Assembly: GCA_964453605.1 (NCBI GenBank)
Contig: CAYVOI010000001.1
Location: 21,182-85,181, forward strand
Length of the DNA stretch: 64,000 bases
Source: an uncultured Gammaproteobacteria bacterium
Lineage (GTDB): Bacteria; Patescibacteriota; Patescibacteriia; Veblenbacterales; UBA10138
Reading direction: 5' to 3'
Within the stretch, counting starts at the first letter, position 1; the number at the start of each line of letters is the position of its first letter. Below are positions 33,862-50,830 of this stretch, one piece after another. Both the position numbers and the translations under genes were made by a program. Below the pieces are notes generated by a model. That model worked only from the letters and a program-made list of their open reading frames with translations. It searched no databases and was not told the DNA's origin.

Positions 33862-34557
33862 TTAGCTTTGGGTGAGGATGTGGTAGAACGGTCCGTAGAC
33901 AAAGCTGATGAAGATGTACGAGCTCATGACCACTACCAGGCCGATGGTAGCGTAGAGCAGGGTCCGTTTGGCTTTGGCCACGCGTTCTTCGTTGCCAGCC
34001 GAGGTCAGCCAGAGCGTACCACCGTAGACGAACATCAGAATGCTTACGCCCGCCAAGCCCGACAGGATGAAGCCCAACAACCGCTGGCCAAAAAAGACAA
34101 AGCCAGCCTGCTTGGTTGGTAGCTGGTTGAGGTTGAGCGGGTCTATGAGCACGGTGTTGGTGCTGAAGGCTGGTGGCCCAGCGGTGCCGGTGAGTACGGT
34201 AATGGTGGTTGCGAGTATGGCGTAGCTGCCCACGGTTAAGATGAGCCCTAAGATGGCGTAGGTTATCATCTGCTTGCCTTTTTGGAAGTGCTCACTATTG
34301 CCGCCAGCGCTCAGAATGCGGTACCCGCCAAGGATAATAAAAAAGAGTGCCAGGGCGCCGGTTATAAAGTTAATGCCACTGGCTACGCGACCAAAAATTT
34401 CCCACACCGTGACCGTGCCCAGGGGGTTCTGGAGTGCTGTGGGTGGCGTGGCGGCATCATCTGCTCGCGCTGCCAGCGGTATGAGCTGTAAGCCCACAGC
34501 AGTTATAGTCGTGAGGGCTGTTCGTAGTAGGTGCTTCAAGTTCGGGTAGCTGAGCAT
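33862..34557 (-). CDS. Duplicated TrbC/VirB2-like protein (231 aa, two pilin modules)
   Basis: Two copies of the helix / AGGNxE..K.K loop / helix unit (SAGGNSEHFQKGKQ and TSAGNEERVAKAKR). Confidence 0.6.
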   Translation of the reverse strand: MLSYPNLKHLLRTALTTITAVGLQLIPLAARADDAATPPTALQNPLGTVTVWEIFGRVASGINFITGALALFFIILGGYRILSAGGNSEHFQKGKQMITYAILGLILTVGSYAILATTITVLTGTAGPPAFSTNTVLIDPLNLNQLPTKQAGFVFFGQRLLGFILSGLAGVSILMFVYGGTLWLTSAGNEERVAKAKRTLLYATIGLVVVMSSYIFISFVYGPFYHILTQS

Positions 34558-34560
34558 ACG

Positions 34561-35253
34561 TTAGTTGGTGTAGCAGCACTTCAGGTTGTTGGTACAGTAG
34601 CCTGCTTTTTCTGTGTAGGTGGTAGTTGGTGTGCAGTCTGGTAGGCAGGTGTAGGGGTGTGTGGGGTCGCTGGTTAGCGAGCTGCAGGCACGCTGGCCAC
34701 AGGTCTCATCAAAACAGACTAAATCTTCGCCGGTGTCGCCACACGGCGTGCCGTCAGCCTTACCGCGGCAGAACTCGGGGTTAGTTGGCGCCACCGTGCA
34801 CTGCGCCTCCCACCAGGAACTACCAAAGAGTTTTTTGCTTAGGGGCTGGCCTTGGGGGGTGATGAGTATGCCCACTACAACGTTTACAATGAAGTAGCCC
34901 CCCAGCACAATGGCCACACCTACGAGCGTGGCAGTAATGATGCCCTTACCCTTACTGACCCGTTCTTGGTTGCCAGCGGCGCGAATGATGCTCTGCCCGC
35001 CCCACACCAGCATGATGAGGGCTAGCCCGCCAAACAGGGACAGGATAACCTTTTGTAGTACCACCATAAGCCCCACGAAGTCGCACCAGGTACAGTTGCC
35101 GTTCTCGCGGCAATCTTTAGCTAAATTACCAACAATGCCGTTAGTGAGGTTGAAGGCTTGGGCCGAGTGGCTGGGGAGCAGTGGTAGGACTACCGCTGCT
35201 AGTATGGCGACACTAATGAGCGTGCCCAAGGTACGGCGGCGAGACGCGGTCAT
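34561..35253 (-). CDS. TrbC/VirB2-like module fused to a C-terminal Cys-rich (14 Cys) domain (230 aa)
   Basis: RAAGNQERVSKGKG loop module, followed by CTVAPTNPEFCRGKADGTPCGDTGEDLVCFDETCGQRACSS...CLPDC...CCYTN. Confidence 0.6.
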   Translation of the reverse strand: MTASRRRTLGTLISVAILAAVVLPLLPSHSAQAFNLTNGIVGNLAKDCRENGNCTWCDFVGLMVVLQKVILSLFGGLALIMLVWGGQSIIRAAGNQERVSKGKGIITATLVGVAIVLGGYFIVNVVVGILITPQGQPLSKKLFGSSWWEAQCTVAPTNPEFCRGKADGTPCGDTGEDLVCFDETCGQRACSSLTSDPTHPYTCLPDCTPTTTYTEKAGYCTNNLKCCYTN

Positions 35254-40134: not shown

Positions 40135-40284
40135 AATTATTTCTCCAATATTTTTCTCTCTTATCTATTATGCAGGCACTCGGGTTATGCCGATAAAAAA
40201 TTGTCTTGGCGGTGTACGCGGATTAGATACTCCAACACTACAATGCGTTGAGAGCTTTTTCAAGGGTCAATCGGTGACGACATT

Positions 40285-40971
40285 TTAAGCACGTGGGTCA
40301 GACAATAGTGATGACGGGGGGATTGAATCACTTTGATTCGTGAGATTTACTTCAGCTACAATTTTACCCGACTGATTTGGTTGAACATCATCTAACCTTA
40401 AAGAAAATTTATTTTGTCTCTTGTATGTATCCCTACATTGAGGACAAATAGTGACAATGTATCTGAGCACACTTTCTAATTGGTTAAAGTCAATTGTAGT
40501 CCATAGGGTATGTATAAATTTATCAAGGAAATTCATGTCTAATACAGCAGTGATGTGTTTAGCTTTATCTTTGTCTTCAAAGTAGTTATCACCAGAACCC
40601 CAAACTATATGAAGTCCCTGGGGCCTACCATCGGGGTATCTCAAGGGATTTGTATCCCAATCATCTAATTGAGCTATAAACACATCAAATTTATTTAGAG
40701 AGAGGGCCGGGAAAGATTCTTTGAATATAGGCCAAAGTTTTGTTAGATCATGTTTGATCTTCCAGAGATCCTTTACAAATGTTGTGTCATATAAACTTGA
40801 AGTCTTCTTTTTAATAATGCCTGCTTTTAGCGCGAACTCGACGGAGTGGTGTAAATTATGAACAGAAACATAGGTCAAGCTCATAAAGTTTCCAGTTCTT
40901 CCGAGTAAATAATACTCGACTGAATAAGTACACCAGCTATTAAAAATTCCATGATTATAAGTGTATTCCAT
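40285..40971 (-). CDS. Hypothetical protein (228 aa), strongly AT-rich and likely horizontally acquired
   Basis: GC is roughly 33-35% against a ~55% background. Contains RPQGLH (Rx4H, HEPN-like spacing). Adjacent to tRNA-Ser and to a tRNA-derived direct repeat. Confidence 0.5.
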   Translation of the reverse strand: MEYTYNHGIFNSWCTYSVEYYLLGRTGNFMSLTYVSVHNLHHSVEFALKAGIIKKKTSSLYDTTFVKDLWKIKHDLTKLWPIFKESFPALSLNKFDVFIAQLDDWDTNPLRYPDGRPQGLHIVWGSGDNYFEDKDKAKHITAVLDMNFLDKFIHTLWTTIDFNQLESVLRYIVTICPQCRDTYKRQNKFSLRLDDVQPNQSGKIVAEVNLTNQSDSIPPSSLLSDPRA

Positions 40972-41225
40972 GATGCTGTCATTTTAGATCTTATTATTTA
41001 CGGAAAGACTCACCTAAGCAGGTGGGGCTTGTCCGATAAAAAGTTTGCCTGGCGGAGAGGGAGGGATTCGGCTTTACCTCTCGTCCGCCCGTCGGCGGAC
41101 TCGGGCTAGCCACCGCCTCGTGGTGCCACCTGGTGGTGGCACATCACTCCGGCGTTCTCACCCCACCGCACCACAAGCAGTTGTGGTGCTCCTCTCCGAA
41201 TGCTGTCCACGTGGTGGACCCCATT

Positions 41226-41312
41226 CGGAGAGGGAGGGATTCGAACCCTCGATAACCTTTCGGCTATACAGGTTTTCGAGACCTGCGCCTTCAACCACTC
41301 GGCCACCTCTCC
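41226..41312 (-). tRNA. tRNA-Ser(CGA), long variable arm, no encoded CCA
   Basis: GGAGAGGTGGCCGAGTGGTTGAAGGCGCAGGTCTCGAAAACCTGTATAGCCGAAAGGTTATCGAGGGTTCGAATCCCTCCCTCTCCG. Confidence 0.85.
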
Positions 41313-41368
41313 GTGAGCTCTACATCGTTTGTAGAGCGTTCACAGTATACGAACGGGGACTAGCTGTG

Positions 41369-42775
41369 TCAATGTAGGTCTGCTAGGACTGCAGTTAGTC
41401 TGTGGGGCACGAGGTTCAGCTTCCAAAGTGCGCCAAGGTACAACACTGCGCCCACTACTAGTTTGCCTACTAAGGGTAGTGGCAGTAGCAGCCCGAGGGC
41501 TAGCACCAGTGTGGCCAGTCCGATCTTCGGCCAACGAGCAGTAGAGAGTTTGAGTCCACGTCGCCAGAGAATGCTGAGCATAGCTAAGTTCACCGCCACC
41601 TCAAGCGCGACCGTGACCCAAGCCGCGCCCCAGTACGAGTAGCGTGGAATAAAGACCAGGTACCCCACTACCCCCCCGAGCGCCCCCCAGGCAAACACCG
41701 GTATGTTGCTCCGCTGGTACCCGAGCGCAAAAATGGCGTAGCCCGCAGCATTGCCGACGAATGAGGCTAGAATGGCGAGGCTGAGGATAGCTAGTATGTC
41801 ACCTGACACGGTAAAGTTAGCCCCAGCTATGGCGCCAATGAGCGAGTGGCCAACCAGCACCGAGCCCACTACCACAGCTAGCCCGGCAGCAAGCAAAGTG
41901 TCAGCTGCACCGATGTAGAGTGCTCGTATGGCGCCATGGTCCTGTTGCGTTTGGGCTTTTGCCAAGAGCGGGAGCAGCAGCCCACCGATAATGGCAGGCA
42001 GAGCCAAGAGCGCTTCGAGCATGCTGTAGGCTACACCGTAGAGCCCAACCTCGGCTGCTGGCCGCACTAGTGACAGCACCACCGTATCTCCCTTGAAGTA
42101 GATAACGTTTAGGGTAGTGGTCAGCGCCACTGGCCAGGTGGCGCGCCAGAGTTCAGCCCAGACCGCGGAGTCAATCCGCCAACCAAAGGGTACTAGGCGG
42201 CGGGCGGCCACCAAGTTCACCGCGGTAATGGTTAGATTGGCCACGATGAGTACAAGGAGGTACGCAGTGGGATTAGCCTTACCACTCCAGGCTACTGCCA
42301 TAGTGCCGCCTAGGAGGAGTGCGCGGCTGCCAAGTTCAAGCCAGGCTAGTGTAGTGCTCCTGAGCTTAGCCTGGTATATGCTGGTGAGCATTTGCCCAAT
42401 GCACGCGGCCCAAAACGCTACGGTGGTGAGCGTGATGCCGGACACTATAACGCTAGGGTACCCTAAGATCACCGCTACCAGTGGTGCCATAGCAAAGGCA
42501 GCGGTGGCTGTGGTTACGCGAAAGCTTAGGGCGTTACTGAGTAGTACCTCGGGCGGCAGTTTGCCGCTCCCCAGTTCCCGCGACACCGTCATGCTAAACC
42601 CTAAGCCCACGAGCAGTGCCACCAGCTGCAGGAACGCTACCACGGTGGTGTACTGGCCATAGCCAGCGGGACCTAAGGTCCTCGTCATCAGTCCCACTAC
42701 CACAATGCCTACAGCGAGGCTGACGGCACGGCTCATGAGCTGAATGCTGGTTTGGCGAGCAAGAACGTTGAACAT
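41369..42775 (-). CDS. Oligosaccharide/lipid-II flippase-family protein (Wzx/MurJ-like MOP superfamily), about 14 TM
   Basis: Polysaccharide-biosynthesis-protein-like polytopic architecture. Start ATG at 42773-42775 (MFNVLARQ). Confidence 0.6.
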   Translation of the reverse strand: MFNVLARQTSIQLMSRAVSLAVGIVVVGLMTRTLGPAGYGQYTTVVAFLQLVALLVGLGFSMTVSRELGSGKLPPEVLLSNALSFRVTTATAAFAMAPLVAVILGYPSVIVSGITLTTVAFWAACIGQMLTSIYQAKLRSTTLAWLELGSRALLLGGTMAVAWSGKANPTAYLLVLIVANLTITAVNLVAARRLVPFGWRIDSAVWAELWRATWPVALTTTLNVIYFKGDTVVLSLVRPAAEVGLYGVAYSMLEALLALPAIIGGLLLPLLAKAQTQQDHGAIRALYIGAADTLLAAGLAVVVGSVLVGHSLIGAIAGANFTVSGDILAILSLAILASFVGNAAGYAIFALGYQRSNIPVFAWGALGGVVGYLVFIPRYSYWGAAWVTVALEVAVNLAMLSILWRRGLKLSTARWPKIGLATLVLALGLLLPLPLVGKLVVGAVLYLGALWKLNLVPHRLTAVLADLH

Positions 42776-44668: not shown

Positions 44669-44917
44669 CGGACCGCGCTAGCCAGCTGCGCGCTATACCC
44701 GGGTGGTGTGCCCCTCGACTACGCTCGGGGCATTCGCCTCGTCCATGGTTTACCATGAGCGAGCGGAGCGAGTCGAATGGTGGGTCGGGTGGGACTCTGT
44801 CCTGGGCAGCGCCGAATGTTGCGCTTGCTCACATTCGGCGGATGCTCCCCCGCCCTTCCCGAAGGACGAGGTCGCTCCTGCCCTTCTCGTCCCCCTACCT
44901 ATCACCTTGGTGGGTCG

Positions 44918-44993
44918 GGTGGGACTCGAACCCACGACCAATTGCTTAAGAGGCAACTGCTCTACCAGCTGAGCTACCGACCCATGAAGTATG
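44918..44993 (-). tRNA. tRNA-Lys(CTT), CCA encoded
   Basis: GGGTCGGTAGCTCAGCTGGTAGAGCAGTTGCCTCTTAAGCAATTGGTCGTGGGTTCGAGTCCCACCCGACCCACCA. Confidence 0.85.
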
Positions 44994-49716: not shown

Positions 49717-49810
49717 AGGTTTAGGTTTTAGAGGTTTTGTAGACGTAGCTTAGTATAGCAGCTCGGGCAAAATTTTTGAACTCTGGCGAACTATGGGCAG
49801 TTCACACCCT

Positions 49811-49882
49811 TGCCCCCGAGAGGAATCGAACCTCTATAACCGGCTTAGAAGTCCGGTGTTCTATCCATTGAACTACAGGGGC
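49811..49882 (-). tRNA. tRNA-Arg(TCT), no encoded CCA
   Basis: GCCCCTGTAGTTCAATGGATAGAACACCGGACTTCTAAGCCGGTTATAGAGGTTCGATTCCTCTCGGGGGCA. Confidence 0.85.
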
Positions 49883-49909
49883 ACGGGTGTGAACTGAGGC
49901 ACCACTAGG

Positions 49910-50830
49910 CTAGGTTGTTTTAGCTTCCTGGTCAACGCCTGCTGACGCTTCCGGACGTAGGTAACGGTAGAGCTTTAACGTGCTCTGGCTTTGGTGCCCA
50001 AGCGTTTGGCTGATGGTAGCAGCTGGTACTCCTTGTTTGAGAAGCCTGGCTGCAAAGGTGTGGCGGAGTGTGCCTGGTGTGAGGCGGCTGGTGATGTTAG
50101 CTGCTTTTCGGTAGTGCTCGAGTATGCGCTGCACGCTGCGCGGGGTGAGTGGTTGGTTGGCGCTACCACGCGCCCGGTCGTGCCGTACAAACAGGGCAGG
50201 GCTACTGTCGTCGCGGGCACTGAGGTACTGTTGCAGGTCGGCCAGACACTCTTTAGGTAGTGTAACAAGTTCGGGTCTTAAGCCTCGTGCTCCTAGGCGC
50301 AGTTCACCTGCGGTACTCAACTGGTCACGCGTGAGCGCGGCAGCCTCTGCCGTTTTCAGTCCAGTAGTAAGAAGGAGTGAGAGTAGGGCGCGGTCTCGGA
50401 GTTGCACCAACTGGGGCTCGCTGCTCTGAAGCGGTGCCTGGACTAGGCGTTCTACCTCTTGGGCTGAGAGTACCGTTACCGTTTCTCTGGTCAGGTGCTT
50501 AAGGTGTACCATGCCGGGCTCGAGTACCTGTTCACCTTGGGCTCTTAGGTACTTCAAGAACGACCGCAGGGCCGAGAGGTGGTAGTTCTGGGCCGCACCA
50601 GAGAGTGCTTTACCGTTCTGTTGGTTGGTTCGGGCGAGCCATCTTGTAAAAGCGCGAACTCGTTCAGTGGTGAGTTGCTCCAAGTTTGGTTCACTAAGGC
50701 TCGTTGCTTGCTTCAGCCAAATTACAAATCGCGCCAGGCTACGGCGGTAGCTTTTGAGCGTGGCTTGTCGGCGCTCTGGTTCCCGGAGCGACCCAAGGTA
50801 GGCTTCGGTGAGTTCGGTTAGATTTGGCAT
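49910..50830 (-). CDS. Tyrosine site-specific recombinase (XerC/XerD/phage-integrase family)
   Basis: Core-binding plus catalytic domain, with R..(H)..LRHTFA..LGHQSQSTLKLY (R-H-R-Y residues). It lies immediately beside tRNA-Arg(TCT). Confidence 0.8.
   Translation of the reverse strand: MPNLTELTEAYLGSLREPERRQATLKSYRRSLARFVIWLKQATSLSEPNLEQLTTERVRAFTRWLARTNQQNGKALSGAAQNYHLSALRSFLKYLRAQGEQVLEPGMVHLKHLTRETVTVLSAQEVERLVQAPLQSSEPQLVQLRDRALLSLLLTTGLKTAEAAALTRDQLSTAGELRLGARGLRPELVTLPKECLADLQQYLSARDDSSPALFVRHDRARGSANQPLTPRSVQRILEHYRKAANITSRLTPGTLRHTFAARLLKQGVPAATISQTLGHQSQSTLKLYRYLRPEASAGVDQEAKTT

Follow-up and report, generated by a model that had tools for sequence, protein, structure and literature searches.

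The locus considered here lies in a 64,000-nt stretch of contig CAYVOI010000001.1 (GenBank assembly GCA_964453605.1, positions 21,182 to 85,181 of the forward strand), referred to below as the window, and consists of a tRNA-Ser(CGA) gene and a structured element, E-Ser, that follows it on the same strand. An earlier reading of the sequence (the original prediction) had proposed that the 3' end of this gene is duplicated downstream around a highly structured, tRNA-like insert, and had offered two explanations: the classic scar of integration at a tRNA 3' end, or a small tRNA-derived mobile element or non-coding RNA. E-Ser is one copy of a widespread and apparently undescribed family of structured elements of about 150 nt, located just after tRNA genes. 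The source organism is a Kerfeldbacteria-like member of the Patescibacteria.

The tRNA-Ser locus and its element

At this locus the tRNA strand is the minus strand of the window. On it the 18-nt sequence CGAATCCCTCCCTCTCCG occurs exactly twice in the window, both times mismatch-free, against a chance expectation of 0.04 matches, and no third copy was found in the window at three or fewer mismatches. The copies are separated by a non-coding 155-nt insert (41071-41225), as had been claimed, and are identical at 18 of 18 positions; only the start of the second needs correction, by 2 nt, since the interval first given for it (41051-41070) took in two bases of the CCA that comes after it. That CCA is indeed lacking from the gene, which is followed directly by AAT; seven of the eleven tRNA genes in the window encode CCA. 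The duplication is no assembly artefact, for the identical sequence is present in an independent Logan assembly of SRR12313480. The insert contains the hairpins and the 5' GGAGAGG named in the original prediction and is as highly structured as was supposed: its minimum free energy is -85.3 kcal/mol (z = -5.4), and none of 200 shuffled sequences folds as well. A promoter-like site lies upstream of the tRNA gene (Table 1), and no promoter-like or terminator-like site was found between the window tRNA-Ser and E-Ser.

Read along the tRNA strand, the order of parts is the tRNA, a spacer hairpin (often terminator-like), the acceptor 5' strand (Acc5), AG, the hairpin H0, CGU, the segment X', UCGAAC or GAGAAC, the domains P2 and P3, and the 3' arm. 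The 3' arm spans T-loop position ~56/57, the T-stem 3' strand, the acceptor 3' strand and the discriminator, with or without CCA; in E-Ser it is identical over 18 of 18 nt to the upstream tRNA on the same strand, and a complementary 5' arm encloses H0. The stem of the spacer hairpin can reach into the acceptor 3' strand of the tRNA and into Acc5 of the element, and the inverted copy in the window hairpin carries ATT, corresponding to the AAT of the gene flank and not to CCA. When folded, the arms rebuild the acceptor stem of the tRNA, which stacks on a T-stem lengthened into the T-loop; the result is the "top half" of a tRNA in which H0 replaces the D and anticodon arms and the core is inserted in the T-loop. 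The acceptor/T-arm frame with its body replaced by helices, which had been recognized at the outset, is thus recovered both in the fold and in the architecture of the family.

A second element of the same class, E-Lys, is found in the window behind tRNA-Lys(CTT). It has a structured insert of 110 nt (z = -5.5), followed at 44778-44797 by a perfect 20-nt copy of the tRNA-Lys end from T-loop to CCA (chance expectation 0), and since the covariance model described below gives it no score, E-Lys belongs to another subfamily.

Table 1. Positions of the tRNA-Ser(CGA) locus, the parts of E-Ser and other features of the window
Feature	Position	Strand	Remarks
tRNA-Ser(CGA) gene, without encoded CCA	41226-41312	-	tRNA calls, 63.1 bits
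Promoter-like site TTGACA-17-TATACT upstream of tRNA-Ser	41344-41372	-	11 of 12 consensus matches
Direct repeat copy 1, tRNA positions ~56-73 (T-loop 3' part, T-stem 3' strand, acceptor 3' strand, discriminator)	41226-41243	-	
Direct repeat copy 2 (41053-41070) and encoded CCA (41050-41052), together the E-Ser 3' arm	41050-41070	-	
E-Ser, acceptor 5' strand through CCA	41050-41198	-	Covariance-model match 41049-41207
Long spacer hairpin: tRNA acceptor 3' strand and flank (CCTCTCCGAATGGGGTCCAC) paired with GTGGACAGCATTCGGAGAGG	41191-41233	-	20-nt arms, 90% complementary
Acc5, CGGAGAGG, complement of the acceptor strand and discriminator of the 3' arm	41191-41198	-	8-bp helix
H0 hairpin: 9-bp stem, CUGC tetraloop, family motif AACUGCUU	41168-41189	-	9 of 9 pairs with changes on both sides
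X' (GGGG) and UGAGAAC, 5' strand of helix P1	41154-41164	-	GAGAAC is a recurrent variant of UCGAAC
P2 domain: invariant CGCC/GGCG base, GGA/GA internal loop, variable hairpin GUGCCACC-ACCA-GGUGGCAC	41114-41154	-	
P3 domain: GGCUAGCCCGAG, hairpin UCCGCC-GACG-GGCGGA, CGAGAGGUAAAGC	41071-41113	-	
E-Lys, second element of the same class, behind tRNA-Lys(CTT) (44908-44983)	44778-44907	-	
Repeat flanking the AT-rich islet, left copy (CCGCCAGGCAAACTTTTTATCGG)	41033-41055	-	23 nt, imperfect, 83% identity; starts in E-Ser acceptor end and CCA
Repeat flanking the AT-rich islet, right copy (CCGCCAAGACAATTTTTTATCGG)	40190-40212	-	Preceded by degenerate tRNA-3'-end-like stretch TCTAATCCGCGTACA (TCTAATCCGCGTACACCGCCA)
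228-amino-acid open reading frame of the islet (199 amino acids from M30 in public data)	40285-40971	-	Weak HEPN-like candidate
Tyrosine recombinase, PF02899 and PF00589 (XerC/D-type)	49910-50830	-	Adjoins tRNA-Arg(tct) (49810-49883); the only one in the window

A family matched to its host tRNAs

Further loci were collected by two scans. The first, of one genome per species, sought the same 18-mer twice at a distance of 135-165 nt and gave more than 120 loci, a lower bound; the second, of metagenomes, used a pattern taken from the core only (GAACGCCGSAG, a gap of 20-50 nt, GAGGCGGTGSC) and free of any tRNA sequence, and gave at least 106 true elements. Both locus sets were chosen by sequence patterns and their frequencies are not genome-wide estimates; the counts and host ranges reported from them in this section are among the matches listed.

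Family membership of the window copy was assessed with a covariance model, R1, built from an alignment (A1) of 31 metagenome members with 33 consensus pairs, from which the window was left out. R1 matches E-Ser over the full length of the model (positions 1-159 of 159; 119.5 bits, E = 6.5e-28) and nothing else in the window; it also recovers about 110 members in the loci and, at lower scores, the Actinomycetota subfamily. In A1 90.3% of the cells are paired, compared with about 40% when the partners are slid by 1-3 columns, and 25 of the 33 pairs change on both sides, which 0 of 500 shuffles reach.

The genome scan yielded 121 repeat pairs, 36 of which are ordinary tandem tRNA-Ser genes and 85 of which enclose non-tRNA structured inserts. 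Nearly all of the latter (78 of 85) start with GGATTCGAA or GGTGAGAA, the complement of CGAATCC in the repeat, and all 85 finish in the repeat, mostly followed by CCA. All four tRNA-Ser isoacceptors serve as hosts, and the host taxa include Saccharibacteria and other members of the Candidate Phyla Radiation (CPR), Desulfuromonadales, Actinomycetota, Gammaproteobacteria, Spirochaetes, Planctomycetes and Omnitrophota. The inserts split into taxon-linked subfamilies that share the logic of their layout and have different cores.

The metagenome elements lie downstream of, and on the same strand as, tRNAs for at least 16 amino acids (Ser 13, Arg 11, Leu 8, Gly 7, Val 6, Glu 5, Gln 4, Asn 4, Pro 3, Asp 3, Tyr 2, Ile 2, Thr 2, and one each for Phe, Cys and Lys), and their arms follow the host. 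Of the 73 elements that have an upstream tRNA within reach, 45 share 14 or more identical nt between their 3' arm and the 3' end of that tRNA, and a further 12 match it over 10-13 nt. X' is a 7-8-nt reverse complement of tRNA positions 59-65, set between the conserved blocks UYGCGU and UCGAAC/GAGAAC, and it covaries with the T-loop and T-stem of the host tRNA (at column pair 69/178, nine UA, eight AU, six CG and three GC). Upstream of X' stands H0, a 9-bp hairpin that mostly has a CUGC loop. Acc5 is found in a subset only: it is perfect at loci L184 and L243, forms helices of 8-10 bp at L143, L168 and L141, and in the window reads CGGAGAGG. Elements on different tRNA types are 85-90% identical between H0 and the end of the core, while their arms differ.

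The same matching is seen within single lineages and contigs. In a syntenic relative (L125; flippase 57% identical) the tRNA-Ser gene has the 3' end GAATCCCACTCTCTCCGCCA, and its element ends in exactly GAATCCCACTCTCTCCGCCA. Some single contigs carry 3-4 copies, every one fitted to the tRNA that it follows (behind Leu, Gly and Pro in L155; behind Arg, Gly and Pro in L133), and one (L131) has three tandem elements behind tRNA-Ser and one behind tRNA-Glu. In a less biased sample than the pattern-selected sets, namely the 120 other tRNAs of the genome loci, 25 have a copy of their own 3' arm (14 nt, 30-400 nt away, outside any tRNA) downstream, and 5 have one upstream. A clean pair of filled and empty sites was not found among close relatives, the recovered loci (L122, L125 and L128) being too diverged or rearranged, and a search inside and upstream of the elements for a partner of the single-stranded 3' tail gave nothing above shuffled controls.

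Could E-Ser be a decayed tandem duplicate of tRNA-Ser, a pseudogene with insertions? Genuine tandem tRNA-Ser genes are the 36 pairs noted above, and the acceptor and T-stem strands are kept in the element; however, ARAGORN and the Rfam tRNA model call only 41226-41312 and not E-Ser, the 5' arm does not copy the 5' T-stem and loop of a tRNA but is reverse-complementary to positions 59-65, of which 59-60 are unpaired, and the same core stands behind tRNAs of at least 16 types. These observations contradict the pseudogene explanation, to which we give very little credence.

Other arrangements behind tRNA genes were seen alongside the family. In a CPR sub-lineage (L143, L214, L225, L236, L240 and L247) an additional mini-hairpin (AAGCGUACUCGCGG-like) separates the conserved GA from the T-stem 3' strand within the 3' arm. 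In Acidobacteriaceae (L006, L008, L040 and L047) a different conserved repeat of about 145 nt, with GGATTTCGCCTCAAGGCTCCC, lies between two copies of the tRNA-Ser end; it has no 5' complement motif, its repeats reach up to 40 nt into the flank, and it may represent an unrelated repeat family. A tandem array with a period of 86-87 nt stands behind tRNA-Ser in a member of the Anaerolineales (L019:200-560), each unit consisting of a terminator-like hairpin and a short tRNA 3' fragment. Relatives of the window organism (L128:6390-6875, from Logan SRR22387906; also L122/L123:6380-7150) have nested tRNA-Ser halves in the order 5'A, 5'B, full tRNA-Ser(cga), 3'B and 3'A, with a conserved extension helix, CCCCGTACAAGAGC / GCTCTGTTACGGGG, around the inner tRNA at the place of the anticodon loop of the outer gene. 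In L122/L123 an open reading frame of GIY-YIG type separates the flippase from the tRNA, and a short, degenerate element comes afterwards.

Selection, transcription and competing explanations

In 21 species of Desulfuromonadales the element occupies a housekeeping context, in the order serS, tRNA-Ser, element, signal recognition particle RNA (ffs), dnaX, ybaB and recR. The mean pairwise identity of its core is 76%, close to that of the tRNA (80%), while the two adjacent spacers are at 35% and 25%: in this one order the core is under purifying selection. The consensus structure has 99.2% of its cells paired, and the non-Watson-Crick cells comprise 13 G-U against a single A-C, a wobble signal that favours the tRNA strand. 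Covariation is strong both here and in the CPR subfamily.

The evidence bearing on transcription is indirect: the strong promoter-like site before the window tRNA-Ser, the lack of a terminator-like site between that gene and E-Ser, and a known small RNA. The Rfam scan, at gathering and E-value thresholds, returned only the tRNA above the cut-off, with sX4 and chance matches below it; the sX4 family (RF02223) aligns to 41156-41329 at 30.5 bits, below its gathering threshold of 70, and covers the tRNA and the first third of the element. The sX4 model consists of a tRNA-Ser and about 70 nt downstream that end in GGGGGGUGAGA, which is the hairpin and the X'-GAGA start of such an element. The curated model looks like a chimera in which a tRNA-Ser gene is joined to the first third of an element of this class lying downstream, and this would explain why tRNA-Ser genes of other genomes have been reported to give spurious sX4 hits (PMC11124144). 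In Xanthomonas, the sX4 small RNA gave a Northern band of 280-300 nt where 156 nt were expected (Schmidtke et al., 2012; PMC3300014), and as this band fits the size of a tRNA together with its element we count it as indirect support for transcription. sX4 as defined differs from the family in being a proteobacterial small RNA that stops inside the element, lacking the core, the repeat and the matching to the tRNA.

On balance, and with moderate confidence, we favour the reading that the insert and the second repeat copy are one module, a tRNA "top-half" mimic RNA that is co-transcribed with its tRNA and belongs to a family spreading among tRNA genes. The module would most likely be transcribed together with tRNA-Ser from the tRNA promoter and act as an RNA, folding so as to imitate the acceptor/T-arm of the particular tRNA that it follows. 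The acceptor/T-arm is the part of a tRNA that is recognized by RNase P, the 3'-trimming enzymes, the CCA-adding enzyme and several synthetases, so that the mimic would probably be processed at its ends by the tRNA maturation machinery to give a stable, end-matured tRNA-like RNA, which could compete for, or switch with, the 3' half of the tRNA itself. In the colonization of a new tRNA gene, the 3' end of that target would be written on either side of a portable scaffold, once directly and once inverted.

Several observations weigh against this reading. A detectable acceptor 5' strand is present in about one quarter of the family members tested, and in none of those from Desulfuromonadales, so that a complete acceptor stem is not universal. 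Stems of the CPR subfamily, including the window copy, are about 98% Watson-Crick, with 36 G-U against 29 A-C in the consensus pairs; counts from a naive hairpin scan (20 G-U against 18 A-C, and 27 against 13) are uninformative and were replaced by these consensus-pair counts. The want of a G-U excess in this subfamily is no less compatible with hairpins acting at the DNA level, or with very young copies, than with RNA. At many loci a hairpin resembling an intrinsic terminator separates the tRNA from the element, whose expression may then depend on read-through. The copied arm tracks the gene with its flank (in 77 of 84 and in 35 of 39 cases CCA is present or absent as in the gene itself), and an inverted copy of the gene flank directly adjoins the 5' arm; both features point to an origin at the level of DNA. 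Finally, clustering of the neighbouring proteins in both locus sets revealed no partner protein. Copying of the arms from the mature tRNA was considered and is unsupported, the elements being no richer in CCA than their genes. Our own reading is accordingly of two parts: a unit of the E-Ser type is an RNA-encoding module, and its arms come from a DNA-level copying process.

The points just listed are also those at which a purely DNA-level selfish element has to be weighed, that is, a miniature non-autonomous insertion with tRNA genes as its homing targets, which enters on their 3' side and duplicates the stretch from the T-loop to the end of the gene or its terminator. The hairpins would then serve recombination as single-stranded DNA or as cruciforms, in the manner of integron attC sites and of the attP hairpin of CTX phage, and any RNA would be incidental. 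Such an element would be multicopy, as observed where different tRNAs host copies on one contig; it would form tandem arrays, which include mixed subfamilies (L020, L131 and L222), and be gained and lost, as between the related tRNA clusters of L133 and L155. The direct repeats, which range in length from 18 to about 97 nt (L016), run up to 79 nt into the flank and can take in a whole terminator or even part of the next unit, namely its start; it is the gene flank and not the mature CCA that the arms copy, the cores stay nearly the same on different tRNA types, and the CPR stems are close to perfect Watson-Crick helices with no clear wobble bias. Against it stand the Desulfuromonadales, in which the core is conserved like the tRNA over 21 species, the spacers are randomized and the wobble pairs favour the tRNA strand by 13 to 1. 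Moreover, transposases, integrases and reverse transcriptases are not enriched near the loci among the matches listed, X' is an internal variable segment between conserved blocks and not a terminal repeat, and the terminal "inverted repeats" change with each target, unlike those of known miniature inverted-repeat transposable elements. We consider a purely DNA-level element unlikely.

The complementarity of the 5' arm raises another explanation, a cis-acting RNA switch for the tRNA itself, in which the 5' arm traps the 3' half of the tRNA or is neutralized by the mimic arm, and the P2/P3 core acts as a sensor by stabilizing P1. The 5' arm is complementary to positions 53-73 of the upstream tRNA as well as to the 3' arm of the element; judged from the sequence, the segment made up of X' and UCGAAC would pair less well with its own 3' arm than with the tRNA, for which 13 contiguous bp are possible (positions 53-65), and the predicted minimum-energy fold of the window co-transcript pairs the acceptor 3' strand of the tRNA with Acc5. 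Minimal forms (L140, L162 and L222) have H0 and X' directly after the tRNA end, and the core combines covarying stems with a riboswitch-like conservation of its junction. The sensor would, however, lie downstream of the tRNA that it regulates, which folds first, and terminator-like hairpins often stand in between; no candidate for a ligand or a protein was found, and the cores of the subfamilies are unrelated in sequence, which is hard to square with a single sensed signal. A switch of this kind seems to us doubtful.

Returning to the mimic RNA, a more far-reaching form of that reading makes the family a new tRNA-dependent genetic parasite or symbiont, a rod- or dumbbell-like unit of about 170-220 nt, composed in order of the tRNA 3' end, a hairpin, the inverted arm, the core and the direct arm, that retargets itself by templating both arms from the tRNA gene behind which it lands, and whose RNA is a bespoke "top-half" mimic. 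We put this forward tentatively, as possible but rather improbable. If it were true, this would be a programmable, nucleic-acid-guided homing that works without an adjacent protein gene, and RNAs with a full acceptor stem and CCA, as in the window, might be recognized by the cognate aminoacyl-tRNA synthetase.

Mobile elements, the AT-rich islet and known systems

Given that an integration scar had been the first explanation offered for E-Ser, links to mobile elements were sought at several levels. Clustering of the neighbouring proteins at the 85 and 106 loci (the matches listed) gave no clusters of recombinases, transposases, reverse transcriptases or nucleases, and returned for both sets only housekeeping synteny (serS and dnaX-ybaB-recR). 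Repeat-pair and core scans of 2.9 million viral contigs gave no true hits to the family, the three pattern matches being neither R1 hits nor accompanied by a tRNA, and BLAST of the insert against phage and plasmid collections gave nothing meaningful.

An inert scar (attL/attR and a remnant) left by the integration and excision of a tRNA-targeting island or prophage would account for a direct repeat that runs from the T-loop to the tRNA 3' end, as expected for integrases that cross over in the T-loop; Williams reportedly distinguished, in 2002, classes of tRNA-integrating integrases by their sublocation. The AT-rich islet next to E-Ser, with a flanking repeat of its own, can be placed on the same side. 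What a scar does not account for is a conserved, covarying, full-length scaffold that scores 119.5 bits in the window, its presence behind tRNAs of at least 16 amino-acid types (matches listed) with both arms matched, housekeeping contexts such as serS-tRNA-element-ffs-dnaX, purifying selection on the Desulfuromonadales core, and the lack of an integrase enriched nearby or of the family in the viral contigs and the phage and plasmid collections. The scar explanation is thus contradicted and in our judgement very improbable; the second of the original alternatives, a small tRNA-derived mobile or non-coding RNA element, holds. The att repeats of tRNA-integrating islands and prophages do resemble the family in their direct repeat of a tRNA 3' segment from the T-loop and in forming arrays behind one tRNA; they differ in that here a conserved, covarying non-coding sequence of only about 110-150 nt lies between the repeats, with no integrase or phage link, a second and inverted copy of the tRNA segment is embedded, and one scaffold serves at least 16 tRNA types (matches listed).

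The neighbourhood had been read as supporting an island, an argument that proves weak. The AT-rich stretch and the open reading frame in it are both present as described; the islet is 843 bp long, with a GC content of 0.35-0.39 compared with about 0.58 in its flanks, and it has its own imperfect 23-nt flanking repeat. Since that repeat begins in the E-Ser acceptor end and CCA, the islet looks like a separate small insertion, which suggests that it used the tRNA-like end of E-Ser as its target. The tyrosine recombinase was placed correctly at about 9 kb, which is distant; it has a pair of XerC/D-type domains and is most simply the chromosomal Xer recombinase, not an island integrase.

The protein encoded in the islet is not the orphan that it was thought to be, as an exhaustive search found 199 remote representatives of about 185 amino acids; an exact look-up gave no record of it, a word-indexed protein search returned only the protein itself, and a PDB profile search and PADLOC gave no match. 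The Rx4H motif (RPQGLH, R116x4H121) from which a HEPN-like nature had been proposed is not conserved in this family, whose invariant residues are Y21, H41, E45, H74, W80, R111 and Y112; the fold, on the other hand, is weakly HEPN-like. Pfam HEPN (PF05168, cut-off 22) scores the protein at 12.1 bits and three of ten homologs at 16.7-18.8 bits. The best structure matches of an alignment-based model (mean predicted local distance difference test, pLDDT, 81) are weak, with HEPN 4nqf first (probability 0.99, E = 0.34), followed by 1wol, 1ufb and 3o10; a single-sequence AlphaFold model (pLDDT 39) was useless. The protein is thus a weak HEPN-like candidate as judged from the models. Elsewhere in the window (33862-35253, minus strand) and at the syntenic loci L001, L122 and L125, two adjacent genes for proteins of about 230 amino acids have Pfam matches resembling pilins of type IV secretion systems; genes for a sugar-nucleotidyltransferase and a solute-binding protein lie upstream of the pair, and relatives have kept the block.

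Among known RNAs, the original prediction had raised transfer-messenger RNA (tmRNA) and other tRNA-like RNAs as candidates for the insert, and neither Rfam nor ARAGORN gives a match to tmRNA or Y RNA; a tRNA-Ala-like domain and a tag reading frame were likewise not detected in E-Ser by these programs. The tRNA-like domain of tmRNA, bacterial YrlA, viral tRNA-like structures, mascRNA and the t-elements of plant mitochondria are mimics of fixed sequence. The family shares with them the mimicry of the acceptor/T-arm "top half", and mascRNA and t-elements serve as processing signals for tRNA-end enzymes; it differs in that its mimic arms are rewritten to suit the neighbouring tRNA, and E-Ser has neither a G3:U70 pair nor a tag reading frame.

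Other likenesses are to elements in DNA. Integron attC sites and the single-stranded attP hairpin of CTX phage have short inverted ends around a variable and sometimes branched centre, with structure conserved over sequence, and in these traits and in forming arrays they are similar to the family; the family has no integron integrase or cassette reading frames, its ends copy the adjacent tRNA, and in Desulfuromonadales it has the wobble signal of an RNA. REP, Correia and RPE elements are likewise small, multicopy, highly structured and non-coding; their terminal repeats are constant within a family, their target duplications are short and of fixed length, and the elements have no tie to tRNA 3' ends. 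The family does not fit a conventional miniature inverted-repeat element, its arms differing with each host tRNA and its repeats varying in length as described. The primer-binding site of retroviruses and long-terminal-repeat retrotransposons is complementary to the 3'-terminal 18-21 nt of a specific tRNA and can be re-templated from it. A segment complementary to the 3' end of a specific tRNA is found in the elements too, whose copies, in contrast, follow the gene and its flank and not the mature CCA end, with no reverse transcriptase nearby among the matches listed. We know of no curated RNA family or mobile-element class that combines a conserved scaffold with arms rewritten for each host tRNA. 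The family is absent from Rfam 15, and our reading of the literature beyond sX4, which was incomplete and leaves room for an earlier description, brought none to light.

If the interpretation given here is correct, a common feature of tRNA loci has been overlooked. About one fifth of the other tRNAs in the sampled loci carry a downstream copy of their own 3' arm, a feature that may have been passed over as the look-alike of a tRNA fragment or an att scar. It would raise the questions of how the arms are templated, whether the RNA serves as a mimic, a trap or a decoy, and whether tRNA-end enzymes or synthetases act on it. Recognition of the family would improve the annotation of tRNA loci in CPR and other genomes, and would prevent false genomic-island calls.

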